Source: an uncultured Candidatus Saccharibacteria bacterium | GTDB lineage: Bacteria; Patescibacteriota; Minisyncoccia; SW-4-49-11 | Reading direction: 5' to 3' | Assembly (NCBI GenBank): GCA_964633865.1 | Contig: CAZWIJ010000004.1 | Span: forward strand, 35,543 to 99,542 | Length of the DNA stretch: 64,000 nt | Shown here: positions 38,462 through 54,773 of the stretch, one piece after another | Numbering within the stretch: the first letter of the stretch is position 1 | How the letters are laid out: every line of letters starts with the position of its first letter | The notes under the pieces: model-generated | Databases searched by the model: none | Told to the model about the DNA's origin: nothing | What the model saw: the letters and a program-made list of their open reading frames with translations, nothing else | Program-made: the position numbers and the translations under genes

Positions 38462-40435
38462 TTATTGAGGTCCTAATGGAGTATTCTGATCTATCACAAA
38501 TCCATATTCCAAAACATCGTCAGTGACAGCACCTATTGCATCCATTGCCTCAGGAGATAATCCTGAAACTCTATCGGTAAAGATTGCAGGACCTGATTCT
38601 ATAATAGAAGCAACTACTCTTCTTCCATTTTTTGGATTTGTAACCAAAACTTTTTTATTAGTGTGCCAAGCTTTTGATGAAGATGTGTTTGATATAGTAG
38701 AGGTAAATGGTCTTGGTCTCCAAGCTATATTTTGATATTTGTATACGAATACAACTTCTTCTCCATTATTAGCATTAACTGGTCCTGTAATGGTTATATT
38801 TGAACTAACATTAGAATTTTTAAAATTTGAACTAACATCATATCCTCTTGATTCAACTTTTAAGGTTGTATCATTAATTTTTGAATAAGCAATAATTTCT
38901 GAGCCTACTTTAACATAACCTGTTGAAGGAAATTGTGTAGCATTATTTACTAAAATTTGATTATCTCCAGATCCTAAGTTAGCTCTCAATGAAGTTCTAG
39001 CCTCATACCAATTAACATAATTCCATCTCATTGTAATATAATATTTTTCAGCTTCCACACCTCCTGGAGCTATTGAGCTATTTCTACTACCTGCTGGACA
39101 ACTAGAACTAAATGCTCCACCACTGCTTAGTAATCCATTTTGCAAATCATATCTTGTCCCTGCATTTGCATAATGTTGTTCTGGTGTTTCATTACAATTT
39201 ACTGGTAAATGTTGTTCTCTAGCTGTTTTTCCTGATGTAGCTGGTATTTGATAACCTTGAAGATTAGCTGTAGTAACATCACCAACTAATTCTCCAAGTG
39301 GATGAAGAGCTATCTGATCATCAGAAGCAGATCTTACATTTTCCCATCTATAACCTAGTGCTAAAAAGATTTTATCACTACCAATTGGCCTTCTTTTTCC
39401 ATCTTCTATTAAATATACTGAAGTTCTATCTGCTATAAGAGAACCATTATTGAATCCTATTGGAACACCTTTAGAATAATTATCTATAACTCTAGATTGT
39501 AGTTGTAATATATCTTGCCAATTATATCCATATGAATTAAATATATCAGGACTTAGTATTTGTCTTAACTCATTATTTTTTACTATATATAAGGTTGGTG
39601 AGCCATAAGCTTTTAGGATACTATTTTCAGAATACTTTTTAAGCCTACTAAATATAGGTCCTTCTGCAATAATTGATAATTCATAATCAGTAGCTCTTCT
39701 CACTTGATTCCAATTAAGTCCATAGCTTTCAAATATTTCTGCAGATCCTATTGGTAATCTTTGATTATTTTGCATCAAAAAAACACTAGTATCACTAGAT
39801 ATTAAAAGACCATCTGGATAATATTGATTTTCTCCAGTTGGGAAAGAATCTATTACAGCTTGACTAACTTGAATAGAAGAACTCCATCTATATCTTGCTT
39901 CAAATATTAAAGGAGATGGAATATATCTTTTTTGACCTTTCTCCAAAACATACATATGTCCAGTTGGTCCATAAATAAGACTACCATCTGGATAATTACT
40001 ATTACTAGTTAATACATCTCCAATTGGATGGGGTTCTATTTCTCTATCCGAAACTGAAATAACATTTTCCCACTTATAACCTTTACCTAAAAAAGTTTCT
40101 CCAGAATCTATAGGTCTTCTATATGTATTAGAAACAACATATACAGTACCTCCATAAGCTAAAAGAGAGCCTTCTCTAAACTGCATTTTAGATCCTGTAG
40201 GAATAGAATCTAGATCAGTTTGAGTTGTAACAACTAAATCTTCCCATCTGAATTGAGATATTAACATTTGAGGAGATTCAATATGTCTTTTCAACCCATT
40301 TTCTATATAATATACTTTAGGATCATTTATAGATTTAACCAATAATCCATTGGGAATTTCTACTGCATCTGCATAAATTGGAAAGAAAAGCATTCCTATT
40401 ACCAATATCTTATATAACAAATTATTTTTTAGCAT
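38462..40435 (-). CDS. secreted repeat protein with C-terminal RlpA-like/DPBB-like domain
   Basis: 657 aa. Signal peptide. ~8 tandem ~50-aa repeats (DGSLI..gt.VYlIe.GkrRpI.S..iF...GY.W.nV..vsd..l...P.G). C-terminus (…KKVLVTNPKNGRRVVASIIESGPAIFTDRVSGLSPEAMDAIGAVTDDVLEYGFV) resembles RlpA/3D double-psi beta-barrel domains. Confidence 0.4.
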   Translation of the reverse strand: MLKNNLLYKILVIGMLFFPIYADAVEIPNGLLVKSINDPKVYYIENGLKRHIESPQMLISQFRWEDLVVTTQTDLDSIPTGSKMQFREGSLLAYGGTVYVVSNTYRRPIDSGETFLGKGYKWENVISVSDREIEPHPIGDVLTSNSNYPDGSLIYGPTGHMYVLEKGQKRYIPSPLIFEARYRWSSSIQVSQAVIDSFPTGENQYYPDGLLISSDTSVFLMQNNQRLPIGSAEIFESYGLNWNQVRRATDYELSIIAEGPIFSRLKKYSENSILKAYGSPTLYIVKNNELRQILSPDIFNSYGYNWQDILQLQSRVIDNYSKGVPIGFNNGSLIADRTSVYLIEDGKRRPIGSDKIFLALGYRWENVRSASDDQIALHPLGELVGDVTTANLQGYQIPATSGKTAREQHLPVNCNETPEQHYANAGTRYDLQNGLLSSGGAFSSSCPAGSRNSSIAPGGVEAEKYYITMRWNYVNWYEARTSLRANLGSGDNQILVNNATQFPSTGYVKVGSEIIAYSKINDTTLKVESRGYDVSSNFKNSNVSSNITITGPVNANNGEEVVFVYKYQNIAWRPRPFTSTISNTSSSKAWHTNKKVLVTNPKNGRRVVASIIESGPAIFTDRVSGLSPEAMDAIGAVTDDVLEYGFVIDQNTPLGPQ

Positions 40436-40444
40436 ATGTTTTAA

Positions 40445-40678
40445 TTATTTTAAATTTATATTATTTTTAATTATAGATAATAAGTATAAAACAATACCTA
40501 CAACTATAAATAAAAAACCAAAAACAACTAGGATTGGAACAATTATCATCTGAATAAACTTAATTATTAGTGATAATAAAACAAATATAGTTCCTAATAT
40601 AATTAAAAATTTTGGATTTAAATTAGAATATATATTTTTATAACTATTTGAATCTTTGTCTACTATTTTTACTTTCAT
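40445..40678 (-). CDS. hypothetical small membrane protein
   Basis: 77-aa ORF with two hydrophobic helices. Confidence 0.3.
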   Translation of the reverse strand: MKVKIVDKDSNSYKNIYSNLNPKFLIILGTIFVLLSLIIKFIQMIIVPILVVFGFLFIVVGIVLYLLSIIKNNINLK

Positions 40679-40684
40679 AAATAA

Positions 40685-41338
40685 CTATTCTTTAATAATC
40701 TCTATTGTATTAATTTTCACATTTTCAATAGGTAAATCATTATAATCTACTTCAACATTTTCAATAGCTTCTACTACTTCCATTCCTTCTACAACTTTAC
40801 CAAAATTAGTATGAGCTCCATCTAACCAAGGAGTTGATTCTGCTGTTACTATAAAAAATTGTGATCCATTTGTATTTTTACCAGAATTAGCCATAGCTAT
40901 ACTACCTTTTACTAATTTTTCATCATTAAATTCATCATCAAACTTAAAGTCTGGTCCACCAGTACCAAAGATACTTTTCTTACTTGGATCTTTAGTTAAT
41001 GGGTCTCCACCCTGAATCATAAAATCTTTAATAACTCTATGAAATAGAATATCATCATAATAGTCATCTCTAACAAAATCCATTATATATCCTACTGTTT
41101 TTGGAGATTTATCCTTAAAAAGTTCTACTGTAATGTCACCTTTGCTTGTATTAATTTTTATTAGCGGGTTTATAACATCATTCATATTATTATCATTAAT
41201 AGTATCATCTTCTTTTATATCACTTAGATTTGCTTCTAGATTTGGGTCTTTTGTATAACTCGAATTATTACTTATAACCTTAGACAATCCAAATCCAAAG
41301 AGTACAAATCCAATAAAAAAGTATATATATTGTTTCAT
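40685..41338 (-). CDS. ppiB: cyclophilin-type peptidyl-prolyl cis-trans isomerase (exported)
   Basis: 217 aa. N-terminal hydrophobic anchor. HRVIKDFMIQGGDP and GTGGP cyclophilin motifs. Confidence 0.8.
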   Translation of the reverse strand: MKQYIYFFIGFVLFGFGLSKVISNNSSYTKDPNLEANLSDIKEDDTINDNNMNDVINPLIKINTSKGDITVELFKDKSPKTVGYIMDFVRDDYYDDILFHRVIKDFMIQGGDPLTKDPSKKSIFGTGGPDFKFDDEFNDEKLVKGSIAMANSGKNTNGSQFFIVTAESTPWLDGAHTNFGKVVEGMEVVEAIENVEVDYNDLPIENVKINTIEIIKE

Positions 41339-41393
41339 AAATTTATATTAATTATTACACACTATATTATATATTATAGCAAATTTTTTTAAA

Positions 41394-42659
41394 TTAATAA
41401 ATCATTTTTTCAAAAGTTTTATTTCCTTCTCTTTTAATATAACATTTTTCTGGGAATAACACATAAAAAGTGGTTCCTTGATTTTGATGAGATGAAAACC
41501 ATATATCTCCATGAATCTCTTTCAAAATTGATTTTACTAAGTATAATCCTAAACCTGTTCCATCAGTATCTACATCATACACATTATCTGCTCTAAATAG
41601 TTTAGTAAATATTTTATCTTTTTGTTTTTCTGGTATACCAATACCAGAGTCTTTAACTGATAGTAAAATATTATTTGATCTAATTGATTTATCTTGAAAA
41701 GAAACTTCTTTTTTTATTGATAAGGATACTTCTATACTTCCTTTGTTTTTAGTATATTTAATTGCATTAGAAAATATATTTTGAAAAATTACCCTTATTA
41801 GAACTTCATCTCCAATATACATTTCTGGTATTTTTTTATCAATTTTAACAATAAATTTTATTTTCTTCTCTTTTATAATACCTTTAAATTCTGATTCTAA
41901 ATCTTTAATCATATGTCTTATGTTGAAATTAGATGGAGTTATTGCAAATGAACCTAATTCTAATCTAGATACATTTAATAAAGAGTTTACTAAATTAATC
42001 ATTCTACCAGTTGATTTTTGAATTTCTTGAATAAACTCTCTACTATCATCTGATAAACTATCACTTAATAATTCAGCATACCATCTAATTGAAGTAAGTG
42101 GGGTTTTTAATTGATGAGAAGCTAGAGATACAAACTCAGTCTTAACTTTATCAATTTCAATTTCCTGAGTTATATCGGTAATAATACCAAACATAAAGGG
42201 ATTCGTCTCTACAATATGATACATTCCTTTAATTCTTATATATCTCTGTTTATCATTATTTATAAAAGTTATTTCTTCAGAAAATGTAATTTCTTTTTCT
42301 ATAGAATCTCTAATTGCATTTGATAACTTTTTTAATTCATTTTTAGGTATAATTTTTTCTAAATCTTTCCAAGAAACTTTATTATAGTATCTTCTAGTAT
42401 TTATTCCTAATATATTCAATACTAATTTATCACATATAAAATATTTATCTTTTAAAGTATAATTCCATGTTCCAATTCCTCCTGCTTCTGAAGATAGCCT
42501 AAATCTTTCTGCTATAAAATCTTTCTCTTCTCTTTCTAATTGATAATCTTCTAAAATATTAATTATAGCTAACTTAGTATCTTCAATATGAGATAATTGA
42601 TTTTTTAATCTAATATTATCTTCAATTAAAGAATCTATCTTCTCAAGATTTTTATTCAT
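41394..42659 (-). CDS. PAS-domain sensor histidine kinase
   Basis: 421 aa. HisKA H-box SLASHQLKTPLTSI, HATPase_c G-boxes (DSGIGIP, GTGLGLYLV). PAS-like region upstream. Confidence 0.75.
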   Translation of the reverse strand: MNKNLEKIDSLIEDNIRLKNQLSHIEDTKLAIINILEDYQLEREEKDFIAERFRLSSEAGGIGTWNYTLKDKYFICDKLVLNILGINTRRYYNKVSWKDLEKIIPKNELKKLSNAIRDSIEKEITFSEEITFINNDKQRYIRIKGMYHIVETNPFMFGIITDITQEIEIDKVKTEFVSLASHQLKTPLTSIRWYAELLSDSLSDDSREFIQEIQKSTGRMINLVNSLLNVSRLELGSFAITPSNFNIRHMIKDLESEFKGIIKEKKIKFIVKIDKKIPEMYIGDEVLIRVIFQNIFSNAIKYTKNKGSIEVSLSIKKEVSFQDKSIRSNNILLSVKDSGIGIPEKQKDKIFTKLFRADNVYDVDTDGTGLGLYLVKSILKEIHGDIWFSSHQNQGTTFYVLFPEKCYIKREGNKTFEKMIY

Positions 42660-43140
42660 TATTATTTAATTTATCCTTTAATATATTTATTTCTTTTTTC
42701 AACTCAATCATCTTTAATTCTCTACCTATCATCAACTTATTTAATCTCTCTACCTCTTTCAAGTTTAATTCTAATGATTCTATCATTTTATTTCTTTCAG
42801 TAATATTTTTAACTACTCCATATATCATATTATTTTTAAGATTTTTATTAATAAACCACTCAAAATATAGAATCTCATTTTTTTTAGAAAGAAACCTAAT
42901 TTGAGAATTACTAATCTCTATATTATCTGAAAACAAAAAGTCTTTTGCTAAATCTCTATCATCTTTATAAATAAATTTTAATATATTCTTATTTAAAATA
43001 TCTTCTTCCATATAACCAGTTATGATAGTTAATAATTTATTAACATTAAAGATTTTATTTTCACTATAATTGATTATAATCATCATTACAGCTCCTGTCT
43101 CAAAAAAATGACATTTTTGTTCTTTATTATCCATATTCAT
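42652..43140 (-). CDS. PAS-like sensor domain protein
   Basis: 162 aa. PAS-like core plus C-terminal coiled coil. Its stop overlaps the kinase start by 8 nt (ATGAATAA). Confidence 0.4.
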   Translation of the reverse strand: MNMDNKEQKCHFFETGAVMMIIINYSENKIFNVNKLLTIITGYMEEDILNKNILKFIYKDDRDLAKDFLFSDNIEISNSQIRFLSKKNEILYFEWFINKNLKNNMIYGVVKNITERNKMIESLELNLKEVERLNKLMIGRELKMIELKKEINILKDKLNNNE

Positions 43141-43144
43141 ATAT

Positions 43145-43597
43145 TTATAATGTTATTTTTATTTCAACTTTTAATTCTGCTAATGGTGCTACAGTTATAA
43201 TTCTATTATTTTGAACCGCTACTTTGTATCCTGTGCTATATGGTTTACTAACAAAAGGATCTTTAGGTAATTCTACAAAATATGCATCATAATTTACTAT
43301 ATCTCCAAGATATAGAAGATTATGATCTCCACATACTGTTTTGTCTACAACAGCACAAATTTCTTGGAAATTACTACTTAAACCTTCTGGTAATTTATCA
43401 TTTTCTATATTATAAGCATAGAGAACTTGTGCTATATTAAGAATTTCAGATTTTCTCTCTCCATTTCTAATAACTGGTAAATATTCTGCCACTTGTTTCT
43501 GTATAAATATTACATATATAATCATAACCATAACAGCTATTGATAAAACTATTTCTAAATATGTAAATCCTTTTTTTCTATTTGATAACTTTTTCAT
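43145..43597 (-). CDS. type IV pilin-like protein (candidate major pilin)
   Basis: 150 aa. RKKGFTYLEIVLSIAVMVMIIYVIF: G|FTxLE prepilin cleavage motif plus hydrophobic helix. Conserved module shared with the 147-aa, 791-aa and 953-aa pilin-like proteins. Confidence 0.6.
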   Translation of the reverse strand: MKKLSNRKKGFTYLEIVLSIAVMVMIIYVIFIQKQVAEYLPVIRNGERKSEILNIAQVLYAYNIENDKLPEGLSSNFQEICAVVDKTVCGDHNLLYLGDIVNYDAYFVELPKDPFVSKPYSTGYKVAVQNNRIITVAPLAELKVEIKITL

Positions 43598-43644
43598 AAA
43601 AATATTTAAGTTTAATTATATTGTTATTTTTATTCTGTAAAAAA

Positions 43645-44751
43645 TTATAACCCATATCTTCCACGGAGAGCATCAAAGTTCTGTTGAATTTCTGGTCCAG
43701 TGAGAGCTTTATCATACACTTTAATAGAATAAATATCTCCTATAATTCTTCTAAAAGAACTTGATCTTTCATCACCAAAGGAAGTTATATTAGAAAAATT
43801 TGAAGGTGTAGATACTAAAGGTTGAGAAACTCTTTGGACTCCATCAACATAAGCCGTTTGATTTACCCCATCCCAAGTAAGAACAATTTGCCTAACAGTA
43901 TTTGAATCTCCTATTATACCAGTTCCCATATTTAACCAAGAACCATTAAATGAAGCATAAATTTCTCCATTCTGCAAAGGTTGACTAGCTACAGTATTTC
44001 CAGCATATCCAATTCCAAGGTAAGCAGTTCCAATCCAATTATTCAAACTATTATTATGTAATATATATCCAATCCCAACATCAGAACTTGGAGAAGAAAT
44101 AGCTTTAACCCAAACTTCATAAGTCTGAGGTGAATTAGATGTTATAGGAGATGTAAAAGTTCCTCTATCATCAATTCCATCAAATGTCAAAGAACCTTGA
44201 TTAGCAGAATTAAAACCTACTCCATTCAAAAGAGTAGCATCATTTCCAATACTTGCTAAATTTGTCCAATTAGTTCCTGCTCCAGGATATGATGATGGAT
44301 CACCAGCATCCAAATTTAAAACTAATCCATCAGTAACTATACTATTATTTACTTCTACAAAATTTATAACCTTATTCCAAGAAGTTACTTCTACAGCTAA
44401 TCCTATACTTACAATACCTACAAATCTCTGAACAAAATCATCTTTATCTATCCTTATTTCTAATCTTTTCTCTGTAGGTGAATTATCACTTACACTATAA
44501 GTACAGGTTCCACTAACAACATCAGTAGCTGTATAACTAGTATCATTGAAAATTTCAAGCAAAATATTTTCTCTACAATTAATTGCATCTGATTCTATTA
44601 TAACTTGTGTATTATTGGAATAATTTCTATAGATAGATTCGAAACTCATATTAAATAAAGTTAAACTTATACCCAAGGTAACTGTCATTATTATTAGAAC
44701 TGTCATTAATGTAATATATCCTTTTTTCATAGATTTAGAGTGTTTTATCAA
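43645..44751 (-). CDS. pilin-like protein fused to ConA/LamG-like lectin domain
   Basis: 368 aa. Pilin-like N-terminal TM (KKGYITLMTVLIIMTV). C-terminal LVLNLDAGDPSSYPGAGTNWTNL...GSLTFDGIDDRG...YEVWVKA matches the LamG/ConA-like (PF13385-type) pattern. Confidence 0.5.
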   Translation of the reverse strand: MIKHSKSMKKGYITLMTVLIIMTVTLGISLTLFNMSFESIYRNYSNNTQVIIESDAINCRENILLEIFNDTSYTATDVVSGTCTYSVSDNSPTEKRLEIRIDKDDFVQRFVGIVSIGLAVEVTSWNKVINFVEVNNSIVTDGLVLNLDAGDPSSYPGAGTNWTNLASIGNDATLLNGVGFNSANQGSLTFDGIDDRGTFTSPITSNSPQTYEVWVKAISSPSSDVGIGYILHNNSLNNWIGTAYLGIGYAGNTVASQPLQNGEIYASFNGSWLNMGTGIIGDSNTVRQIVLTWDGVNQTAYVDGVQRVSQPLVSTPSNFSNITSFGDERSSSFRRIIGDIYSIKVYDKALTGPEIQQNFDALRGRYGL

Positions 44752-45208
44752 AATTTAGTTGATATTTTAGTGTTTGTCTACTATTAGTAAGGTATGTGGC
44801 ATCCATATTGACTGTAATAGAATCATTATCTATCGTTCCTTTATTCTCAAATAATAAATTTGTAATAGAAATTTCATCTATATGTAAAGGAATTATCCCG
44901 TTAACACTACTTTCTACAAAAATCCCTGATTGAACTTCATATGTATAAGTAATACCTCCACTAACTAAAACTAAACTAGTTTGACTTGTATTAGGAGTTG
45001 GAGAAGTAATACTAGTTGCTGTATCTATTCTATGAGATATATGTTGTAGAGCTGCATCTGTCCCCATTTGAACTTGATTCATAGCAAGGGTTTTTTCTCT
45101 AACTGTAATTGTTGTAACATATACTTGTGATAGAGCTAGTGTTACAACTCCAATTAAAGATACCCCTAACATCAACTCTAATAATGATAAACCTTTTTTC
45201 TTTTTCAT
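44735..45208 (-). CDS. pseudopilin / minor pilin
   Basis: 157 aa. KKKGLSLLELMLGVSLIGVV prepilin N-terminus. Overlaps neighbours (operon). Confidence 0.55.
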   Translation of the reverse strand: MKKKKGLSLLELMLGVSLIGVVTLALSQVYVTTITVREKTLAMNQVQMGTDAALQHISHRIDTATSITSPTPNTSQTSLVLVSGGITYTYEVQSGIFVESSVNGIIPLHIDEISITNLLFENKGTIDNDSITVNMDATYLTNSRQTLKYQLNFDKTL

Positions 45209-47304
45209 TATGGTATTATTAAACTAGCTGGTTTTGTTGTCCCATCACTGAATACAAGAATAAAACTAAGAGTACTTCCAGCAGATAATGCTCCATTAAA
45301 TCTAAATTCCAAAGGATAATCTGCATAAAGATCAAAATCTGTGATATTAGCATTATAAGGTGAAGTATTATTATAACTACCAGCAGTAGCATTATTAACA
45401 CGAATACTACTTAATCTTCGATTTCCAGTACTATTCCAAGTTATATTGTTTATATTTGTAACTCTAACTCTACAACCAGAATTATTTCTAATTCTTATAT
45501 TGCTTAAATTCCTTCTGTTTCCCGATATTGTAATTTGAGACACATCTACAGTTGTAGTATTCGCCTGATTCGTACATAAATTTATGTCTGTACTAAAATT
45601 AAATGAAGGTACTACATAAGATGACCCATCAGCAAAGACTAATCTAAACGAATTATTACTATTAAAAATTGTTCCAGAAAACTGAAAAAGTAATTCTTGA
45701 GTATTCTCTATATTTGTATTATTGATAGGAATATTTCTACCCAAAACTGTATCTCTAGTTAGATTCCCAGTCCATACATTAAGAGAATTGTCAGTTCTAT
45801 TAATAAATTTAGGTCCAATTTTAATAGAAGCTAAATTAACATTTGTGGTCCAAATAAATTCATTAATATCGGTTAAAACAACTGGACAAGCTGTTCCTGT
45901 AGTATTAACTAACTCTATCCCCCTTATTATCCTATTATCGGAAGTTAGGCTATTTGAAGTAGTATCAGGGAAAGCGGTATTTATGATATTAGCCTGGAAA
46001 TTTTGAGCTTGAGTATTAGAAATACAAGGATCTATTGGTAAAGAAATTATACCACTATCAAGTGTTGATCCATCAGTAAAGACTACTGTGAATGAGATAT
46101 TTTGTGCAGTCATTGGAGCATTGTATTGTAAAACTAACTCCTTAGTGTTTGTTATAACTGTATTTGTAACATCAATATTATGACCTGGACTAGACAAAGG
46201 AGCTAAATTACCTGTCCATACATTAACAGTATTATTTAAATCTCCTATTTTGATTGCTGATAGGTTATTACTTTGCCATAATAAAGAGTTTATGCCGTCT
46301 ACCTCAATATTACAAGTTGTACCTGTATTATTAATAAGTCTTATTCCTCTTATCATTCTATTTTGACTTACACCTATAGAATCAAATGACCAATTACTGG
46401 TATCCAAAGTTGTATTCTGTGCTTGAGTGAATACACAAGGATCTAAATCAGAATAAATCACTCCACTATTCAAAACTGATCCATCACTAAATATTACCGC
46501 GAAAGTTAAACTCTGCCCCGTCATCTGACTATCAAACAAAAATGCTAGTTCATGAGTTCCCGTTATATCTTGATCATTTATATCTATATTTTTATTTGAA
46601 GGAGACTCTGTACCAGACCAAATATTAAAGTTGGAGTCTAATTTGTCAAAACCTTCTGCTCCAAATTTTACATTGGTTAAGTTATTATTTTGCCATTCAA
46701 CAGAGTTTATATTTGTTGCTTGAATATTACAATCACTAGAATTATTATTAATTAATCTTATTCCTCGAATTAAGCGAGATCTATTAGATGGAGAATTATC
46801 ATTGGTAGCAGATTCTATAGAAAAACTACTTATGTCTAATGTAGTATTCTCAGCCTGAGTACCTAAACATGTTATCAAAGGTTCTTGCCAACTTTTATAT
46901 GTTACTTGAGAAGATAGACTATCACCTCTTCCATTTTTACCAATCCAAGTGATATTGATAACAGCTTGTACCGTATCAGAATCTGGTTGAGTTAGAGTTA
47001 CTGATCTTTGGTAGTCTCCTAAAGTTTCTACTCCAGAAATTAATGCCCAATTACTTCCAAGTGTAAATCCAAGCGGTGTCGCAGTAGAATAACCAACTAA
47101 TCTATCATATTTCAAAGTATCTAATGCTCTTGTAGCTTCTTGCAAATATTCATAACCTTGTGTCCTTTCTCCTTTAACAAGAATACTTCTTTGATATTCT
47201 GTAATTGTTCCAACTATACCAACAATTACAAAACCTGTTAAGCCTATTGATAAAACTATTTCTAATAATGAAAAACCTTTATTTTTTTTAAATAACAAGC
47301 CCAT
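45208..47304 (-). CDS. large minor-pilin-like protein with 4 internal ~125-aa repeats
   Basis: 698 aa. KNKGFSLLEIVLSIGLTGFVIVG prepilin N-terminus. Four tandem repeats each containing R(M/L)IRGIRLINN..(S/T)xC...NIN...W...L..(V/I)K.G. Confidence 0.5.
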   Translation of the reverse strand: MGLLFKKNKGFSLLEIVLSIGLTGFVIVGIVGTITEYQRSILVKGERTQGYEYLQEATRALDTLKYDRLVGYSTATPLGFTLGSNWALISGVETLGDYQRSVTLTQPDSDTVQAVINITWIGKNGRGDSLSSQVTYKSWQEPLITCLGTQAENTTLDISSFSIESATNDNSPSNRSRLIRGIRLINNNSSDCNIQATNINSVEWQNNNLTNVKFGAEGFDKLDSNFNIWSGTESPSNKNIDINDQDITGTHELAFLFDSQMTGQSLTFAVIFSDGSVLNSGVIYSDLDPCVFTQAQNTTLDTSNWSFDSIGVSQNRMIRGIRLINNTGTTCNIEVDGINSLLWQSNNLSAIKIGDLNNTVNVWTGNLAPLSSPGHNIDVTNTVITNTKELVLQYNAPMTAQNISFTVVFTDGSTLDSGIISLPIDPCISNTQAQNFQANIINTAFPDTTSNSLTSDNRIIRGIELVNTTGTACPVVLTDINEFIWTTNVNLASIKIGPKFINRTDNSLNVWTGNLTRDTVLGRNIPINNTNIENTQELLFQFSGTIFNSNNSFRLVFADGSSYVVPSFNFSTDINLCTNQANTTTVDVSQITISGNRRNLSNIRIRNNSGCRVRVTNINNITWNSTGNRRLSSIRVNNATAGSYNNTSPYNANITDFDLYADYPLEFRFNGALSAGSTLSFILVFSDGTTKPASLIIP

Positions 47305-47698
47305 ATTGATTTATATTAATTATTTTGTCTATTGTAAGATTTATTGTAGTATCAGTTGAAAGTCCTGTCACTCTATCAAATGTAACTATAATTGGAGATC
47401 CCATACTTATATTTTTCAAATCATAAATCTGATCAAAATTTGTATCTCTATTATTATAATCATCTCCCAAAAAAACTATTGCTGATGAAGAATCTATTCT
47501 TACAGACCAATCAGAATCCTCCAATCCAAATACAGCTTTTTCTCTTGCCACTCTTAGAGCTAAAATTACATTAATTTCTGAATTTCTCTGTTCATTTTTT
47601 TCTATCACTTCTATAGATATTGGAAGGGAAAAGGATACTAATATTCCAATAACAGCAATTGTCAACATTATTTCTAATAAAGAAAATGCTTCTTTCAT
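47288..47698 (-). CDS. pseudopilin / minor pilin
   Basis: 136 aa. MKEAFSLLEIMLTIAVIGILVS (FSLLE with hydrophobic helix; Ala rather than Gly at -1). Confidence 0.5.
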   Translation of the reverse strand: MKEAFSLLEIMLTIAVIGILVSFSLPISIEVIEKNEQRNSEINVILALRVAREKAVFGLEDSDWSVRIDSSSAIVFLGDDYNNRDTNFDQIYDLKNISMGSPIIVTFDRVTGLSTDTTINLTIDKIININQYGLVI

Positions 47699-47699
47699 A

Positions 47700-48743
47700 T
47701 TACAATCCTTTTAATAATGAATACATAGGTCCTATAATAGAATAAGCCAATCCCAAAACTGCAAACCAAACTATAATCAGAATAGCTGGTTCTAATATGC
47801 TTGGAATAGATTTTGCTAATCTATACAATTCTTTCTCATATCTTATACCTATTTTTTGAAACACAGTTAAAAAACTTCCTGATTTTTCTGCAAATACAAT
47901 CATAGCAGGAACTTGATCAGGAAACAGCATTTCTGTTTCTGGAATAGATTTGATAACTTCATCCATTGTTTTTCCTTCATCTATTAAATCTATAACTTTT
48001 TGATAATACTCCTTATAATAATGATTATCAGAAACTCCTTTTAATAAAGTTAAAGCTTCTGTAAAAGGATATCCAGCATTTAGTAAGCTTCCTAACATAT
48101 ATCCCATTCTTGATGATTCTGCTGATATAACAATTTTTTTTATTAGCGGTGTAGATAATTGTATTCTCTCACCAATAAATTTAGTTTTCTTATTGAAAAA
48201 TAAAAAATAAAAAGCAATTAACATAAATAAAACTACAGCTGGAACAAAAATCATTCCCCACTTAGCAAAAAAATTTCCAATAGAAATTAAAATTTGTGTT
48301 TGAATTGGTATTTCAACTCTCAAAACTAAAAATGATTCTGTTAATTTTGGTAAAACAAACCACATAATTCCAAGCCCAACAAAGAAAGTTGTTAATAAAA
48401 CAAATACAGGATAGGTTAACACTGTAATAATTTTATTATTTAAAGAGAACCTTTTTTCTTCATTAATCAGAGCCAGTTTGAAATTTTCTTGTAGACTACC
48501 ACTTTCCTCGCCTATCTTAATAAGAGAAACCACATAATGTGGAAATATTTTATTTTTATCAAAAGACTCCCATAATAAATTTCCTTCTTCAACTAAACTA
48601 ACCACATTTTCAAAAGCTTTTTTTAAATCTTTATCTTTTATTTTTTTCGATACTTCTGAAATAGATTCTACTATAGATATCCCAGATTCAGACAAATTAT
48701 AAATATTTTCTAATGCATAAAATGCTTGTTTTTGATTTATCAT
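47700..48743 (-). CDS. pilC: type IV pilus / T2SS inner-membrane platform protein (PilC/GspF family)
   Basis: 347 aa. Two T2SSF-like domains with 3 TM segments. Directly downstream of pilB. Confidence 0.8.
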   Translation of the reverse strand: MINQKQAFYALENIYNLSESGISIVESISEVSKKIKDKDLKKAFENVVSLVEEGNLLWESFDKNKIFPHYVVSLIKIGEESGSLQENFKLALINEEKRFSLNNKIITVLTYPVFVLLTTFFVGLGIMWFVLPKLTESFLVLRVEIPIQTQILISIGNFFAKWGMIFVPAVVLFMLIAFYFLFFNKKTKFIGERIQLSTPLIKKIVISAESSRMGYMLGSLLNAGYPFTEALTLLKGVSDNHYYKEYYQKVIDLIDEGKTMDEVIKSIPETEMLFPDQVPAMIVFAEKSGSFLTVFQKIGIRYEKELYRLAKSIPSILEPAILIIVWFAVLGLAYSIIGPMYSLLKGL

Positions 48744-48747
48744 ATAT

Positions 48748-50445
48748 TTACTCTTTTAAAAATTTTTCTGGAATTTTTACAACTCTAACCAATTCTTCAA
48801 AGTTAGTAATTCCTTTTTTTACTTTATCCAATCCATCCTCAAACATAGATATATATTCTTCCTCATTTATAATTGACTGTACTGATTTTATATTCTCAGC
48901 TAAAGCATCTTTCATATCATGAGTAATAGCTAAAACTTCAAATACTGCTGTTCTTCCTTTATATCCAGTAAATCCACATTCTCTACACCCTTTGCCATTA
49001 AAGACATTTATTTTAGTTTTTGGAAAAACTTTAAATATACCCGGAACAATCTTTTTTAACTCCGCAATAGACATTTCTTTACTATATTTACAATGAGGAC
49101 AAATAGTTCTAATTAGTCTTTGAGAAATAATTAAATCTATAGTAGATGAAAGTAAAAATGGCTCTATGCCCATGTCATAAAGTCTAGGTAAAGTAGATAT
49201 AGCATCATTTGCATGAAATGTAGATAAAACTAAATGACCAGTTAAAGCAGAGTTGACCGCAATTTCAGCTGTTTCATTATCTCTTATTTCACCAACTAAA
49301 ATAACATCTGGATCTTGTCTAACAATCGATCTTAAAGCTTTAGCAAAAGTTATATTTTTTTGCTCATTTACTTGAATTTGATTTACTCTGTCTATTCTAT
49401 ATTCTACGGGATCTTCAATAGTAGTAATATTGACTTTAGTATCAATCAAATCTCTAATAGCAGCATATAGAGTTGTTGTTTTTCCTGACCCTGTAGGACC
49501 ACTTACTAAAATTAGCCCGAAAGGATTTTTTAGATTATCATTAATTAATTTAAAAGCTTTATCAGATAAACCTATAGAATCTAAACCTAAATCACTTACA
49601 TACCTAAATAGGATTCTAACAACAACTTTTTCACCATCCATAACTGGAGCAACCGAGATTCTCATATCAACCGTTGTGTTTTTTTTAGTCAAATACCTGA
49701 TTGAACCATCCTGAGTTTCAAAATGCTCATCAAGTCTTAATTTAGAAAGTACTTTTAATCTGTTAACAATATTCTCATAAAAATTTTTAGGCAGAATACC
49801 AATATCATGCAAAACTCCATCTATACGAAATCTAATAACAACATCTTCCGAAAATGGTTCAAAATGTATATCAGAAGCTTTTTGAGCAAGAGCATCTTCA
49901 AATATTTCTTTCACTATGTCAGGAACAACTTGCTCTCCTTTTGATACAATTTCAGATATTCTGTCAGAAAAATTATTTTTATATAATAAAAAGGAATCTT
50001 CTATTGAATTTGGCAAAGAATAACCTAATTTAACTTCTTTATCAGGGAAAATTTCTTTTATTATAGAAATTAACTTTTCATCAGGATTACTAGTGGCCAC
50101 AAATATTTCCATCTTACTCTCTGCAAAAGGGACTATTTTATATTTATTAGCTATGTCATAATTTATTTTTTTTACTAAATCTGTACTTGGAGGAAATGAT
50201 TTTAGATCAAATAAATTTAGAGAATAAAACTCAGACATAGCCTGACCAACAAGGTCTGATGTTACTATATTAGAAGATATTAATATAGTATAAGCTTCAT
50301 CAAAACTTTTATCAGAGAAATCTACCTGTAAATCATCAATATCATCTTGCTCAATATAATTTTGTTTAACAATGATATTAACAAGGTCTAGACCTGTTAT
50401 CTCTTTAATTTCTATTTCTTTATTTTTAAAAATTGGATTTTGCAT
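48748..50445 (-). CDS. pilB: type IV pilus assembly ATPase (PilB/GspE family)
   Basis: 565 aa. Walker A SGPTGSGKTTTL, Asp box, Walker B ILVGEIRD, His box LVLSTFHAN, tetracysteine CPHC...CREC motif. Confidence 0.85.
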   Translation of the reverse strand: MQNPIFKNKEIEIKEITGLDLVNIIVKQNYIEQDDIDDLQVDFSDKSFDEAYTILISSNIVTSDLVGQAMSEFYSLNLFDLKSFPPSTDLVKKINYDIANKYKIVPFAESKMEIFVATSNPDEKLISIIKEIFPDKEVKLGYSLPNSIEDSFLLYKNNFSDRISEIVSKGEQVVPDIVKEIFEDALAQKASDIHFEPFSEDVVIRFRIDGVLHDIGILPKNFYENIVNRLKVLSKLRLDEHFETQDGSIRYLTKKNTTVDMRISVAPVMDGEKVVVRILFRYVSDLGLDSIGLSDKAFKLINDNLKNPFGLILVSGPTGSGKTTTLYAAIRDLIDTKVNITTIEDPVEYRIDRVNQIQVNEQKNITFAKALRSIVRQDPDVILVGEIRDNETAEIAVNSALTGHLVLSTFHANDAISTLPRLYDMGIEPFLLSSTIDLIISQRLIRTICPHCKYSKEMSIAELKKIVPGIFKVFPKTKINVFNGKGCRECGFTGYKGRTAVFEVLAITHDMKDALAENIKSVQSIINEEEYISMFEDGLDKVKKGITNFEELVRVVKIPEKFLKE

Positions 50446-50494
50446 ATATTTTAGTTATTTTTAATGGTTTTATTTATTATATCAAATTTTTTAT

Positions 50495-50887
50495 TTATTT
50501 ACTATCATATAAATAAAAGTTTACTATTTCTAATATTTTATTTAAAGGCATCTCCGATTTTATATAATAAGCTGTTGCCCCAAGATCTTTAACTCTTAAC
50601 TTGTCTTCTGGTTGACCTAGATTAGATAGAATAATAATAGGAATCTCTTTATTTTTTTGTCTAATAGCTTTTAGCACTCCAAATCCATCTATTTCTGGCA
50701 CAATTAAATCTAAAAGGACTATATGTATATTAGAATCAAACAAATTAATAGCCTCTCTTCCATTATAAGTTGTGAGAATATCATAACCTGCTGATCTTAA
50801 CTTTAATTCCAAAGCCTTAGCTAAAGGCTTTTCATCTTCACAAATCAAAATTTTTCTCTTATTATCTAATTTTTCTATTTTATCCAT
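50495..50887 (-). CDS. single-domain response regulator (CheY/PilH-like receiver)
   Basis: 130 aa. Receiver fold with phospho-acceptor Asp in VLLDLIVPEIDG. No output domain. First gene of the pilus operon. Confidence 0.75.
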   Translation of the reverse strand: MDKIEKLDNKRKILICEDEKPLAKALELKLRSAGYDILTTYNGREAINLFDSNIHIVLLDLIVPEIDGFGVLKAIRQKNKEIPIIILSNLGQPEDKLRVKDLGATAYYIKSEMPLNKILEIVNFYLYDSK

Positions 50888-51037
50888 TTTTATCCATATT
50901 TAAATTTATAATATATAATTTTTTAAAATACTTACTCATAATTATACATTAGAATAAACCAAAATACAATAAAAAATTATTTTATTTTATTATATTTTAT
51001 AGTATAATATATATATTAAAGATAATTTAAATATTTT

Positions 51038-51979
51038 ATGATATACGATACTATTATTATTGGTGGTGGTCCCACTGGAACTGCATCCGCTGTATATGCC
51101 GCAAGAAAACAAATGAAAACTTTATTAATAACAGAAAGCTTTGGAGGGCAATCTATCGTATCAAATGACATTGATAATTGGATTGGAGATATCAAATTAA
51201 CTGGATTTGAGCTTGCACAAAAATTTGAAAAACATGTTAAAGCTCAATCTAATATTGATATAATTGAAGGTGATTTAGCTAATAAAATCACAAAAATTGA
51301 TTCTGTTAAAAATTACCCTATCTATCAAGTAGACACAGAAAATGGAAAATCTTTTCAAGCAAAGACTTTGATTTTAGGTTTAGGAGCAAAGAGAAGAAAA
51401 TTAGGTTTAGAAAGAGAAGAAGAACTAACAGGAAAAGGAGTTGCTTATTGTGCTACTTGCGATGCTCCATTTTTCTCTAATGTTCCGGTTGGGGTTGTTG
51501 GTAGTGGGAACTCTGGATTAGAAAGTGCTTTAGATCTACTTAGCTATGCTTCAGAAGTATATCTTTTTAATAGAACTGAAAATATAAAAGGTGATCCTGA
51601 TAAAGTGGATAAACTTAATACCTATCCGAATTTCAAAGGATTTATCCATAATAGTCAAGTCTCTAAATTTATTGGGGAGACAAAATTAGAAAGTATAGAG
51701 TATACAAATTTAATCAATAATGAAGTAAAATCTTTACCATTACAAGGACTATTTATAGAAATTGGTTCAATTCCTAACTCAGAGATGGTAAAAGATTTAG
51801 TAAATATTAATTCTTATGGTGAAATTATAATAGATCACAAATATTCATCTACTTCAGCTCCTGGAATATTTGCTGCTGGAGATGTTACTGATGAAGCTTA
51901 TAAACAAAATAATATATCTGCTGGAGATGCTGTTAAAGCTACCTTATCAGCATATCATTATATCCATAATTTAAAGTAA
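51038..51979 (+). CDS. trxB: thioredoxin-disulfide reductase
   Basis: 313 aa. FAD motif IIIGGGPTGTASAVYAA, redox-active CATC (AYCATCDAPF), NADPH GxGxxG. Confidence 0.85.
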   Translation: MIYDTIIIGGGPTGTASAVYAARKQMKTLLITESFGGQSIVSNDIDNWIGDIKLTGFELAQKFEKHVKAQSNIDIIEGDLANKITKIDSVKNYPIYQVDTENGKSFQAKTLILGLGAKRRKLGLEREEELTGKGVAYCATCDAPFFSNVPVGVVGSGNSGLESALDLLSYASEVYLFNRTENIKGDPDKVDKLNTYPNFKGFIHNSQVSKFIGETKLESIEYTNLINNEVKSLPLQGLFIEIGSIPNSEMVKDLVNINSYGEIIIDHKYSSTSAPGIFAAGDVTDEAYKQNNISAGDAVKATLSAYHYIHNLK

Positions 51980-53020: not shown

Positions 53021-53464
53021 TCAACCACTAACTTCTATCGATATATCTAATTCTGGATTAATTACATCCACCCAAATTTTATTATCCAAAATTCTTAATC
53101 TATATCCAGTTCCATCAATTTCATCTTCATCTAAAGGATCTTCTGGAATAGATTCAAAGTATTCACTCTTTAATAAAGATAAATCCAGATAACCTGAACA
53201 ATCTATCGCCTTATCATCACAAATTTCCTGATATTGATCAGTTATTCCAGCAGGGTATGATCCTTCTAATGATCTATATTTCAAAATTACGGAGATTATT
53301 TCTTGAACATCTAATCGTCTTTGATTATTTCTTTGTTTCTGTAATCTATTTGTACTATTAACCACAATTAATATTCCACCTAATAAAATACCAATAATTG
53401 AAATAGTTAATATCATTTCTAAAACTGTGAAAGCTGTTTTATTATTATTTATTTTTGTTCTCAT
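53021..53464 (-). CDS. type IV pilin-like protein (orphan paralog)
   Basis: 147 aa. KTAFTVLEMILTISIIGILLGGILIVV. Same conserved module (…YP.G…QEICD…IDC.G…DLSLL…IPEDP) as the 150-aa pilin and the giant proteins. Confidence 0.55.
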   Translation of the reverse strand: MRTKINNNKTAFTVLEMILTISIIGILLGGILIVVNSTNRLQKQRNNQRRLDVQEIISVILKYRSLEGSYPAGITDQYQEICDDKAIDCSGYLDLSLLKSEYFESIPEDPLDEDEIDGTGYRLRILDNKIWVDVINPELDISIEVSG

Positions 53465-53486: not shown

Positions 53487-54773
53487 TTAATTTGACCTAA
53501 GTGCATTAATTGGATTTAGAAATGCTGCTTTTAATGCTGGATATAAACCTGATATAATACCAACAAGAATACTTCCTAATACTATATAAAGTGTTATTTT
53601 TATATCAAAATTAAAGAATTGTTCCAGCTCAAATCCAGAATTTTGAAGAGCAGATACAACATAAGGATCTCCTATTCTCATAGATACATATACTATCAAA
53701 AGACCTAAAGATCCTCCTAATAAACCAATAAATCCTGATTGAACTAAAAATATAAATAATATTTGCCAATTAGAAGCTCCCATAGATTTTATAATTCCAA
53801 TTTCTTTAGTTTGTTCATAAATACTCATTACCATTGTATTCATAATTCCAACTGAAGCAACTAATCCAGATACTAAACCAAATACTACCAAAACTAATGT
53901 AAATGCACTTAATATTTGATTAAAAAATCCTAATATATCATCAGCTGTAAATATAGAAGCAAAATTATAATCTGTCTCTAAAAATTCTTTAAACTCCACC
54001 ACCTTATCATTATTAACAGATATTCTCATCATATCATATCCAATATCTTGAATAAATTCTTCCTTAGAATCAAATCCACCTATATTAGCTAATATTTCTG
54101 CTGATTTATCTAATGAAATTATAAAGTCATTTTGATCTCTACCTGGATCATATACACCTTTGATAGTTAGTTCAAAACTTTTATTTAAAGTTTCTTTTGT
54201 TTTTATTGAACCAAAAGTACTAGTCTCAGCAGTATTTAAAGTTAATTTTTTACCAATCAAGTCTTCTGGATTTTCTATATTATATAATTTTGTAAAACTT
54301 ATTGAAACAAAAGCTTCGTCACCTTTAGGCATTTCTGTATTCCCATAAAATTCAGTAAAATAGCTATCTTTTCCATCTATATCCCAGCCAGAACCAAAAG
54401 ATGGTCTTAGAGGTTTATCATATCCTTCAATCTTTCCTTCAAGAGAAGTAATAACTGTCATAGGAGATATTTTTTCAACTTCTGATTTTTCTTTTAAAGT
54501 ATTAATTAAATCATCATTTATTTTAGTTAATGGTTTCTCTTCTTTTTCTTCTTCTCCAGCAGAACCAGTTACCAATGCTGCTCCAGCTGAATTACTAACA
54601 AAAACTTCATTTGGCTTAAATTGAGATTGGAATGAATTAGTAATAAGAGTTTGTAAATCTCTCATCCCAAAAATAATAAGTGATAATAATATAACTGCTA
54701 TTGTTATACCCAAACTAGTCAAGATTGTTCTTAGTTTTCTTCTTAGAACTAAAGATATTGCATATTGAAACAT
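53487..54773 (-). CDS. FtsX-like ABC transporter permease (MacB/LolCE family), no adjacent ATPase
   Basis: 428 aa. N-terminal TM, large extracytoplasmic domain, 3 C-terminal TM helices. Confidence 0.5.
   Translation of the reverse strand: MFQYAISLVLRRKLRTILTSLGITIAVILLSLIIFGMRDLQTLITNSFQSQFKPNEVFVSNSAGAALVTGSAGEEEKEEKPLTKINDDLINTLKEKSEVEKISPMTVITSLEGKIEGYDKPLRPSFGSGWDIDGKDSYFTEFYGNTEMPKGDEAFVSISFTKLYNIENPEDLIGKKLTLNTAETSTFGSIKTKETLNKSFELTIKGVYDPGRDQNDFIISLDKSAEILANIGGFDSKEEFIQDIGYDMMRISVNNDKVVEFKEFLETDYNFASIFTADDILGFFNQILSAFTLVLVVFGLVSGLVASVGIMNTMVMSIYEQTKEIGIIKSMGASNWQILFIFLVQSGFIGLLGGSLGLLIVYVSMRIGDPYVVSALQNSGFELEQFFNFDIKITLYIVLGSILVGIISGLYPALKAAFLNPINALRSN

Follow-up and report, generated by a model that had tools for sequence, protein, structure and literature searches.

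Here we describe a type IV pilus-like gene cassette in a 64,000-nucleotide stretch of DNA (hereafter, the window) from an uncultured Candidatus Saccharibacteria bacterium (contig CAZWIJ010000004.1, positions 35,543 to 99,542). The interval 43145-50887 of the window contains eight open reading frames (ORFs), all on the minus strand and all at exactly the coordinates given by an initial annotation that had been made from the sequence alone (Table 1). The cassette consists, in order, of a receiver, the assembly ATPase PilB, the platform protein PilC, four minor-type pilins and a major-type pilin, followed by a PAS-domain protein and a histidine kinase; the gaps between the first eight genes are 49, 4, 1, −17, −1, −17 and 47 nt. 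The PAS gene starts 4 nt past the last pilin, and the kinase gene overlaps it by 8 nt. Because these two genes follow the pilin block here, sensor kinases follow it in relatives, and a syntenic locus (L001) conserves the whole neighbourhood, including the PAS gene, the functional unit is 41394-50887 and the left boundary drawn initially has to be moved outwards. The kinase is likely to be the partner of the receiver that heads the cassette.

Table 1. Positions of the cassette genes, their modules and other features of the window (amino acids, aa; E values unless bits are given; a slash stands within each signal motif)
Feature	Position	Strand	Evidence
Receiver, 130 aa, single-domain response regulator, cassette gene 1	50495-50887	-	PF00072 1e-18
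PilB/GspE-family assembly ATPase, 565 aa	48748-50445	-	T2SSE 3.4e-118; N-terminal MshEN 1e-8
PilC/GspF-family platform, 347 aa	47700-48743	-	T2SSF (PF00482) 1.2e-37, two stretches
Minor pilin 1, p136, 136 aa, H-type position	47288-47698	-	TIGR02532 21.7 bits, cut-off 16.3
Minor pilin 2 head, p698 residues 1-144, predicted I-type	46873-47304	-	KNKG/FSLLE N-terminus; AlphaFold2 model
p698 repeats, four tandem beta-sandwich	45208-46872	-	R1 46441-46872, R2 46030-46440, R3 45580-46029, R4 45211-45579, then stop
Minor pilin 3, p157, 157 aa, J-type position	44735-45208	-	N_methyl 3.1e-5, 23.8 bits, cut-off 21.2
Minor pilin 4 head, p368, Glu5-less, K/PilX/ComGG-type position	44347-44751	-	homology to the fourth protein of relatives
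LamG/ConA-like module of p368, residues ~135-368	43645-44346	-	PF13385 Laminin_G_3 1e-9
Major-pilin-type p150, 150 aa	43145-43597	-	RKKG/FTYLE; homology to CPR major pilins
PAS-domain protein, 162 aa	42652-43140	-	TIGR00229 4.5e-8, above cut-off
Histidine kinase, 421 aa	41394-42659	-	HisKA 6.6e-18, HATPase_c 4.4e-26
p147, extra major-pilin-type, 147 aa, KTA/FTVLE, outside operon	53021-53464	-	N_methyl 2.8e-4, GspG 8.9e-6
Modular pilin, 791 aa, KKG/FTLLE, DUF285/BspA-like repeats	29501-31876	-	DUF285 8.6e-116
Modular pilin, 953 aa, KKG/FTLFE, 13 DUF5122 beta-propeller repeats	31971-34832	-	DUF5122 3.9e-179
Membrane ATPase, 801 aa, TrwB_AAD_bind, DUF87, TraG-D_C (DUF8128 in precomputed matches)	59257-61662	-	family scan

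The identities initially proposed for the first three genes were borne out by matches to PF00072, T2SSE and T2SSF and by the translations. Orthologues of the receiver, with 40-47% identity, lie directly upstream of PilB in four relatives (L007, L008, L009 and L013) that belong to the set of Candidate Phyla Radiation (CPR) loci compared below. PilB matches T2SSE with 395 bits (cut-off, 24.9) and contains the Walker A motif GPTGSGKT, the Walker B motif DPDVILVGEIRD, the His box TGHLVLSTFHAND and a CxxC...CxxC tetracysteine, which together mark it as an assembly ATPase. PilC has the two T2SSF domains of a platform protein, and subunits with class III signal peptides are encoded next to it. On these sequence features, the machine belongs to the type IV filament superfamily. 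No finer subtype can be assigned because the PilB, GspE and ComGA equivalog models all score high and all stay under their cut-offs (TIGR02538 PilB, 5.4e-144; GspE, 2.1e-132); the same holds for the matches of PilC to GspF (3.8e-50) and ComGB (3.2e-29), both below cut-off.

The components taken as marks of a type IVa pilus (PilT, PilMNOP and PilQ) were not found in the window or in the ~13 kb of additional flank (~3.5 kb left and ~9.5 kb right) that longer contigs of the same organism provide, about 77 kb in all and only part of the genome. For this reason, we do not file the system as a type IVa pilus, and monoderm-type or CPR-type type IV pilus is the better description. The CPR affinity suggested by the initial annotation agrees with the nearest relatives of PilB in species-representative genomes (45-58% identity), which come from metagenome-assembled genomes (MAGs) of Falkowbacteria, Parcubacteria, Paceibacterota and Peribacteria; the nearest records are labelled Patescibacteria, with one exception. 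This exception, L007 (CAZXEE010000001.1, 546,729 bp), is titled 'uncultured Gammaproteobacteria bacterium' and encodes a CPR-type pilus cassette as in Falkowbacteria MAGs, with near-identical N-termini of the major pilin, which is present in three tandem copies. The Gammaproteobacteria label is probably wrong.

Pilin carriers and their cargo

The five pilin-like proteins of the cassette begin with MKEA/FSLLE (p136), KNKG/FSLLE (p698), MKKKKG/LSLLE (p157), MKKG/YITLM (p368) and RKKG/FTYLE (p150). The class III signal motif with a glutamate at position 5 (Glu5) is present in four of them, p368 being the exception, so that the motif G/F(T/S)L(L/I)E initially ascribed to all five holds as a Glu5 prepilin start in four and is not uniform. 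Scores above the curated thresholds of N_methyl or TIGR02532 are reached only by p157 and p136, and the match of p698 is sub-threshold. The assignments by position are consistent with homology to CPR relatives, in which the first pilin is 27-32% identical to p136, the third 28-32% identical to p157, and the 143-160-aa pilins that close the pilin block 25-30% identical to p150 over the full length (E to 1.3e-17). In addition, p136 has weak matches to GspH (2.7e-4, below cut-off), ComGD and ComGE, and p150 has a weak match to GspG. The row of four adjacent minor-pilin genes, in which the I-type product is predicted to adopt the GspI/PilV fold, resembles the HIJK core of type IV filaments. The minor pilins of that core prime assembly and stay at the tip, where a Glu5-less K subunit caps them (PMC9934059).

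The second of these pilins, p698, bears a long repetitive extension. Residues 1 to ~144 form a complete pilin, and the remainder of the protein is made of four repeats, R1 (residues 137/145-288), R2 (289-425), R3 (426-573/575) and R4 (574/576-698), each with two conserved cysteines. The four internal repeats reported in the initial annotation are well supported, with pairwise identities of 29-43% and BLASTP E values of 1.6e-37 to 6.7e-6. For residues 1-288, AlphaFold2 was given an alignment of 33 relatives with a single repeat each and produced a confident model (mean predicted local distance difference test score, pLDDT, 87). In it, an alpha1 helix of 60 residues leads into a beta-sheet head (78-137), and an all-beta domain (154-279) stands apart from the head. 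The head is modelled with a GspI-like fold, the closest likeness being to GspI of type II secretion systems (T2SS). Foldseek returned nothing at E <= 0.001, and family scans gave no Pfam family or signature for the repeat. Sub-threshold matches of PKD_4, Rib, Pentapeptide and phage-TTP models to p698 and to its orthologue P0122 were discarded.

A word-indexed search with full-length p698 among 5.8 billion proteins recovered, apart from the query, a single orthologue, P0122 (985 aa). An exhaustive profile search with the repeat unit against 1.84 billion cluster representatives yielded 99 proteins at E <= 0.001, about 20 of which were discounted as partial PKD-like alignments to a C-terminal FxFxDGS motif. 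A Glu5 prepilin N-terminus is present in 53 of the 79 proteins with at least one full copy; about a dozen others have Glu5-less pilin-like N-termini, and the remainder are mostly fragments. The copy number across the family ranges from 1 to 6. Judging from this distribution, the repeat is a rare, essentially pilin-dedicated and previously uncatalogued domain. P0122, the syntenic orthologue encoded at L001 (50% identity overall and 83% between the heads), has six copies, Q1-Q6, such that R4 resembles Q6 (61%), R3 resembles Q5 (50%) and R2 resembles Q2-Q4 (62-69%). The mutual identity of Q2-Q4 (72-82%) marks them as recent tandem duplicates, and with six copies in P0122 against four in p698, the length of the stalk varies between close relatives. 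The two distal stalk domains (R3/Q5 and R4/Q6) are, by these identities, conserved types.

The fourth minor pilin differs from the others in both its head and its cargo. The p368 ORF begins at TTG, and an ATG seven codons on (44730) yields a protein of 361 aa with the leader MKKG. This is probably the true start, which we prefer because public gene callers and the orthologues begin at that ATG; the length first assigned is thus probably seven residues too great, whereas the lectin domain assigned to this protein holds up in the Pfam match, the AlphaFold2 model and the Foldseek search. The Pfam and NCBIfam scans gave no N_methyl match for p368; neither a T2SSK or PilX_N match in Pfam nor a GspK alpha-domain was detectable, the AlphaFold2 model of the head being unreliable. 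Nevertheless, the first ~128 residues align with the Glu5-less fourth protein (132-140 aa) of CPR relatives at 22-29% identity and E values to 1e-7. A profile of this head retrieved 1,134 family members. The best 120, from Paceibacterota, Falkowbacteria, Parcubacteria, Collierbacteria and Uhrbacteria, are all 127-163 aa long. JGI gives the name PilX to one member, and weak matches to PF14173 (ComGG) are found in two. By homology, then, the p368 carrier appears to be a small subunit that occurs throughout the CPR and occupies the K/PilX/ComGG position. Three full-length proteins combine the Glu5-less head with LamG, as one truncated protein probably does, and the fusion is, as far as this distribution of sequences goes, a rare derived state.

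The LamG module itself matches PF13385 with 39.2 bits (cut-off, 27.6) and is modelled by AlphaFold2 as a jelly-roll with pLDDT > 90, features that place it in the Laminin_G_3/ConA-like superfamily. Foldseek returned 321 matches in the PDB at E <= 0.001, and all 50 of those listed are ConA-like lectin, receptor-binding or carbohydrate-binding domains, among them the lectin domain of trans-sialidase (3.8e-11), HcN of botulinum neurotoxin and carbohydrate-binding domain 4 of AbnA.

Thus, the profile searches that had been proposed as a check all gave matches (T2SSE, T2SSF, N_methyl and Laminin_G_3), and so did structure prediction, with an independent jelly-roll in p368 and a separate all-beta domain behind the pilin head of p698. 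These results support the original proposal that the minor pilins themselves bear the lectin and repeat modules, with no separate PilY1-type adhesin. An N-terminal pilin module with alpha1 and a small beta-sheet head is present, as in the modular pilins defined by Raynaud et al. 2021. Both cargo modules are modelled as independent domains: LamG has stand-alone homologues that start at the head junction, and the p698 repeat is a separate beta-sandwich, yet almost pilin-specific. The notion of a module that is not specific to pilus biology holds, for this reason, for LamG only.

The plan of the cassette recurs in L007-L013, where a receiver, PilB and PilC are followed by pilins 1 to 3, the second of which is large (418-540 aa), then by a Glu5-less protein of ~135 aa and by one to three major pilins (143-160 aa); each protein of the window cassette matches its positional counterpart in these loci. 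Sensor kinases with PAS/HisKA/HATPase domains, in some cases with CHASE4 or dCache, come after the pilin block in L007, L008, L012 and L013. L001 is closer, with the whole cassette neighbourhood conserved at ~50-75% identity and the same fusions present as uninterrupted ORFs. The synteny comparison suggested at the outset thus confirms a conserved plan in L001 and L007-L013. The cargo is different: of the four relatives scanned, three (L007, L008 and L010) have LVIVD beta-propeller repeats on pilin 2, no module was recognised in pilin 2 of L013 in the family scan, and two relatives have Fib_succ_major on pilin 1, alone or together with Calx-beta. Gene content and order, domain folds and the orthology of the carrier heads are maintained and the modules are swapped; across the relatives, the carrier pilins are kept and the modules are interchangeable cargo.

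The LamG module and phage virion proteins

Over the length of the module, p368 is 50-68% identical to stand-alone proteins of ~230 aa, which begin exactly where the pilin head ends. The genomic contexts of these proteins were phage-like in all three cases examined. In L006, the LamG gene lies beside genes for a 1,741-aa tail-fibre protein (phrog_9942, 1.4e-37) and for tail proteins (phrog_5939, 1.1e-68), and the tail protein is nearest to those of Synechococcus myoviruses (36-37%). In L075, within a tail cluster, LamG is fused to an N-terminal part of the phrog_5939 tail-protein type, and in L076, it is found among many small ORFs together with CP12 and ferredoxin genes, which are typical cyanophage auxiliary genes. 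The p368 module itself matches phrog_24074 (4.9e-27) and phrog_8510, a 'virion structural protein' (9.3e-17). Among deposited phages, the best matches are in the Synechococcus phages S-SKS1 and S-PM2 (38-39%), followed by Flavobacterium phages (29%). The LamG subfamily is therefore shared with phage virion proteins such as the S-PM2 'virion structural protein', phrog_8510 and phrog_24074; the phage copies, however, are free-standing or tail-fused, whereas the copy described here is fused to a pilin, lies in a cellular pilus operon and has a host-like codon composition. In two of the phage contigs, LamG genes of ~230 aa occur as a pair, either in tandem or near one another (L006, 10001-11446; L076, 4574-6238), which suggests paralogous receptor-binding or decoration modules in one virion.

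In a distance-based neighbour-joining tree, the rooting of which is not established, the pilin-fused LamG copies and P0004 form a small group inside a 16-member clade of stand-alone proteins. The members of this group are 68-76% identical to each other and 63-71% identical to the phage-type copies, stand-alone metagenomic proteins encoded in tail-fibre clusters. These relationships between the sequences suggest a transfer from phage to cell. The GC content at third codon positions (GC3) of the module is 0.11, the same as that of the genome; recent horizontal transfer was rejected on this ground, and any transfer must be old. It is conceivable that the tip LamG was recruited from a cyanomyovirus-like virion or tail family and may bind the same host glycan, while the repeat would serve as a pilin-dedicated stalk whose copy number tunes the reach; as a joint scenario, this is a speculation that we consider rather doubtful. 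If the recruitment were real, an epibiotic CPR cell and phages would share a receptor-binding module, and this module would predict the host of the epibiont, which is otherwise unknowable from a MAG.

Proposed function, alternatives and known systems

Taken together, these results translate into a model in which the locus is probably a type IV pilus cassette of the CPR that brings along its two-component control and has the role of a tip adhesin. From the arrangement of the locus, we infer tip location, adhesion, ligand class, regulation and co-transcription. Under this model, a prepilin peptidase encoded elsewhere would process the pilins. The four minor pilins (p136, p698, p157 and p368) would prime assembly on PilC and become the tip complex, given that HIJK pilins prime filaments and stay at the tip and that modular pilins are predicted to be tip-exposed (PMC8179133). 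The filament body would be built from the 150-aa pilin, the 147-aa pilin encoded outside the operon, or both. The Glu5-less p368 would cap the tip and present the LamG lectin at the apex, and the GspI-type p698 would project its stalk of four beta-sandwiches sideways from the same tip. The tip modules would act as adhesins, by which an ultra-small, probably epibiotic cell could bind glycans or other ligands on a host or surface; adhesion to host-cell or surface glycans appears to be the most likely function, given the analogous pilins PilC of Streptococcus sanguinis and PilX1 and PilX2 of the CPR bacterium TM7x (PMC9934059, PMC11623550). The kinase and the receiver probably couple pilus assembly to a signal, as their conserved linkage suggests.

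Several results weigh against this model. No prepilin peptidase (PilD/GspO/ComC, peptidase A24), PilT or PilM/N/O gene was found in the ~77 kb of window and flanks, which confirms the initial remark that PilD, PilT and PilM are missing from the window and extends it to the flanks; processing and retraction, therefore, cannot be demonstrated at the locus. Most N_methyl matches are under the Pfam gathering score. Profile searches of the PDB with the H-, J- and K-position pilins gave only general alpha1 matches, and per-member Pfam scans, which had no PulJ or PilW hit, gave nothing finer than 'pilin', so that the putative H, J and K identities draw on gene order, the missing Glu5 and sub-threshold matches to hidden Markov models. 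The AlphaFold2 model of the p368 head has pLDDT < 50, with three sequences covering this region. LamG domains are not invariably lectins, and some bind proteins. Finally, a promoter and terminator scan of 40300-51200 found 76 promoter-like sites, compared to 81.8 expected from shuffled sequence, and the four terminator-like sites all lie within genes. Because such a scan is uninformative at the 27% GC of the window, we base operon structure and co-transcription on gene spacing and conserved order.

The cassette could alternatively encode a Com-type DNA-uptake (competence) pilus, by which a cell that synthesises little itself would capture nucleotides or DNA from the environment, the modules being secondary or serving as DNA or cell-wall receptors. 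The best named matches of several of the pilins are indeed to ComG proteins (ComGE, 1.9e-6 and 3.5e-5; ComGD; ComGF), but every Com match is far under its curated cut-off, and although the machinery matches ComGA (5.8e-76) as well as ComGB, the PilB and GspE models outscore ComGA. Two members of the K family carry PF14173, and PilT is lacking nearby, as it is in Com systems; however, comEA, comEC and dprA were not found in or beside the cassette, and the LamG lectin fold and Ig-like repeats are cargo of the adhesin type. In the CPR bacterium TM7x, moreover, mutants in the type IV pilus T4P-2 equal the wild type in competence (PMC11623550). We accordingly consider a competence pilus unlikely.

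Another possibility is that the large proteins are membrane-anchored surface proteins that use a class III signal peptide, like archaeal sugar-binding proteins, and that the cell surface is decorated without any pilus. Bulky cargo fits poorly in a filament body, but placement at the tip, as in the published model of modular pilins (PMC8179133, PMC9934059), removes this steric problem. The 791- and 953-aa giants, with their major-pilin-type heads, lie far from any ATPase, PilB weakly matches a bindosome ATPase in NCBIfam, and neither PilD nor PilT is in view. In contrast, p698 and p368 occupy the I and K positions of a CPR-wide four-gene block that comes straight after PilB and PilC, and the p698 head is modelled with the GspI fold that nucleates tip complexes. 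Surface anchoring, too, seems improbable for these proteins.

A T2SS-like pseudopilus, which would push proteins out instead of forming an adhesive surface pilus, is highly improbable. The GspE, GspF, GspG, GspH and GspI models all match and the I-type head is most like T2SS GspI, but no secretin, GspC, GspL or GspM was found in the window scans. The nearest relatives are Patescibacteria, for which a monoderm-type envelope is expected: cultured and imaged members have such an envelope and no outer membrane. Furthermore, multi-domain cargo on two tip subunits is ill-suited to a short periplasmic piston, and because HIJK sets are common to all type IV filaments (PMC9934059), the likeness to GspI does not discriminate. 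That the large pilins are mis-assemblies or gene-calling fusions of a small pilin with a neighbour, as the stand-alone homologues of the modules and the doubtful TTG start might hint, is next to impossible, considering that identical p698 and 361-aa proteins occur on 13-24 independent contigs (ENA, JGI, Logan and NCBI; p698 on at least 24), that the syntenic L001 locus has the same fusions uninterrupted, and that the modules do not differ in GC3 from the remainder of the genome. Public sources attach no names to these proteins.

The pilus model that we favour has close parallels. The initial annotation called the fusions unusual, and this does not stand: modular pilins are widespread (PMC8179133), have been studied genetically in TM7x (PMC11623550), and the large pilin 2 is present in the CPR relatives examined. 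Raynaud et al. 2021 catalogued more than 1,200 modular pilins with 264 architectures, with PF13385 fusions among the 15 commonest and with CPR examples (PMC8179133); an 860-residue Falkowbacteria pilin with 12 LVIVD (IPR013211) motifs is in the InterPro catalogue (PMC8179133). Our locus shares with that catalogue the design of a carrier with a grafted module, the Pfam lectin family, multi-repeat cases and the heavy representation of CPR. The survey, however, required the IPR012902 motif together with a catalogued second domain, whereas p368 is without N_methyl and the p698 repeats are without a signature. Both proteins would consequently escape it, and its authors foresaw undefined modules.

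In Streptococcus sanguinis, PilC is a tip-located lectin pilin that binds glycans and has had its structure solved (PMC9934059). It is likewise a pilin with a short linker and a ConA/LamG-type lectin, partnered with a GspI-like small pilin, and in both systems, the pilin is the adhesin, there is no PilY1, and the machinery is monoderm-type with few components. Here, in contrast, the lectin sits on the Glu5-less fourth subunit of a four-gene minor-pilin block and the I-type subunit bears four repeats; there is no sequence kinship to that PilC and no pilin with a von Willebrand factor A domain, and glycan binding is a prediction. PilX1 of TM7x contains a jelly-roll resembling that of lectins, and efficient binding to the host requires PilX2, a pilin with a beta-propeller (PMC11623550). 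Both organisms belong to the CPR and have an accessory C-terminal lectin-like jelly-roll on a minor pilin that is named PilX or occupies its position, a proposed tip adhesin in episymbiosis; PilX2 is paralleled by the LVIVD-propeller pilins of the cassette relatives. The two are likened by description only, and they differ in CPR lineage (the PilB neighbours here being Falkowbacteria, Parcubacteria, Paceibacterota and Peribacteria), in the multi-repeat I-type pilin and in the flanking receiver and kinase genes.

Compared with the GspK-GspI-GspJ tip of the T2SS of enterotoxigenic Escherichia coli (ETEC; PDB 3CI0) and the type IVa set FimU-PilV-PilW-PilX, the cargo here is on I and K, and there is neither a secretin nor PilY1; neither a GspK alpha-domain nor a T2SSK or PilX_N match was detected, and H and J are assigned by position. 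CofB, a tip-located minor pilin of the ETEC type IVb pilus (PMC8179133), has the same layout as p698: behind the pilin head come a linker, a series of repeated beta domains and, at the far end, a beta-sandwich. However, it shows no sequence match or significant fold match to p698 and forms a trimer in a type IVb system, whereas p698 has four homologous repeats of variable copy number.

Given that modular pilins are already published, the locus extends the picture of type IV pili and does not change it. It adds a conserved CPR cassette in which two subunits, those in the I and K positions, bear cargo and which is flanked by a two-component system. It further adds a repeat domain that had not been catalogued, is dedicated to pilins and varies in copy number, and a lectin module whose identity to phage virion proteins is unusually high. 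Host recognition and attachment by CPR bacteria is a central open question for a large share of bacterial diversity, almost none of which has been cultured. The conservation of the machinery and the four carriers across CPR classes, with the tip cargo swapped, is expected if the tip complex sets host or substrate specificity. The closeness of the lectin to phage virion LamG suggests an exchange of receptor-binding modules between phages and epibionts, and a profile of the repeat in domain databases could improve the detection of modular pilins that signature surveys miss.

Other pilins and neighbouring genes

The additional major-type pilin, p147, is 30-35% identical to CPR major pilins, closer than p150, and is conserved in L001; its gene adjoins one for an FtsX/MacB-type permease (53487-54773). 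The two giant modular pilins of 791 and 953 aa are encoded by adjacent genes about 9 kb from the pilus operon. Both have N_methyl matches above the cut-off, and their residues 1-150 are 35-44% identical to CPR major pilins. These proteins might cap pili, polymerise or be anchored only. At L001, an extra 590-aa DUF5122 gene (626-2398), which the window lacks, lies between GroEL and the FtsX-like permease, which again points to gain and loss of propeller-repeat surface proteins in this lineage. Beside the cassette, 38462-40435 on the minus strand encodes an internally repetitive 657-aa protein with a signal-peptide-like N-terminus and no Pfam match, which is conserved in the same place in L001 (17713-19686).

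Farther away, the 801-aa membrane ATPase is, by its domain matches, a coupling protein of the VirD4/TraD type and may be part of the monoderm-type type IV secretion system described for Patescibacteria (PMC12102498). Two further minus-strand genes encode a 442-aa protein with two tandem domains of the LOG/'lysine decarboxylase' (SLOG) family (12606-13934) and a 478-aa KAP-family P-loop NTPase (485-1921), the latter adjoining small unannotated ORFs and possibly representing a remnant of a defence or mobile element.

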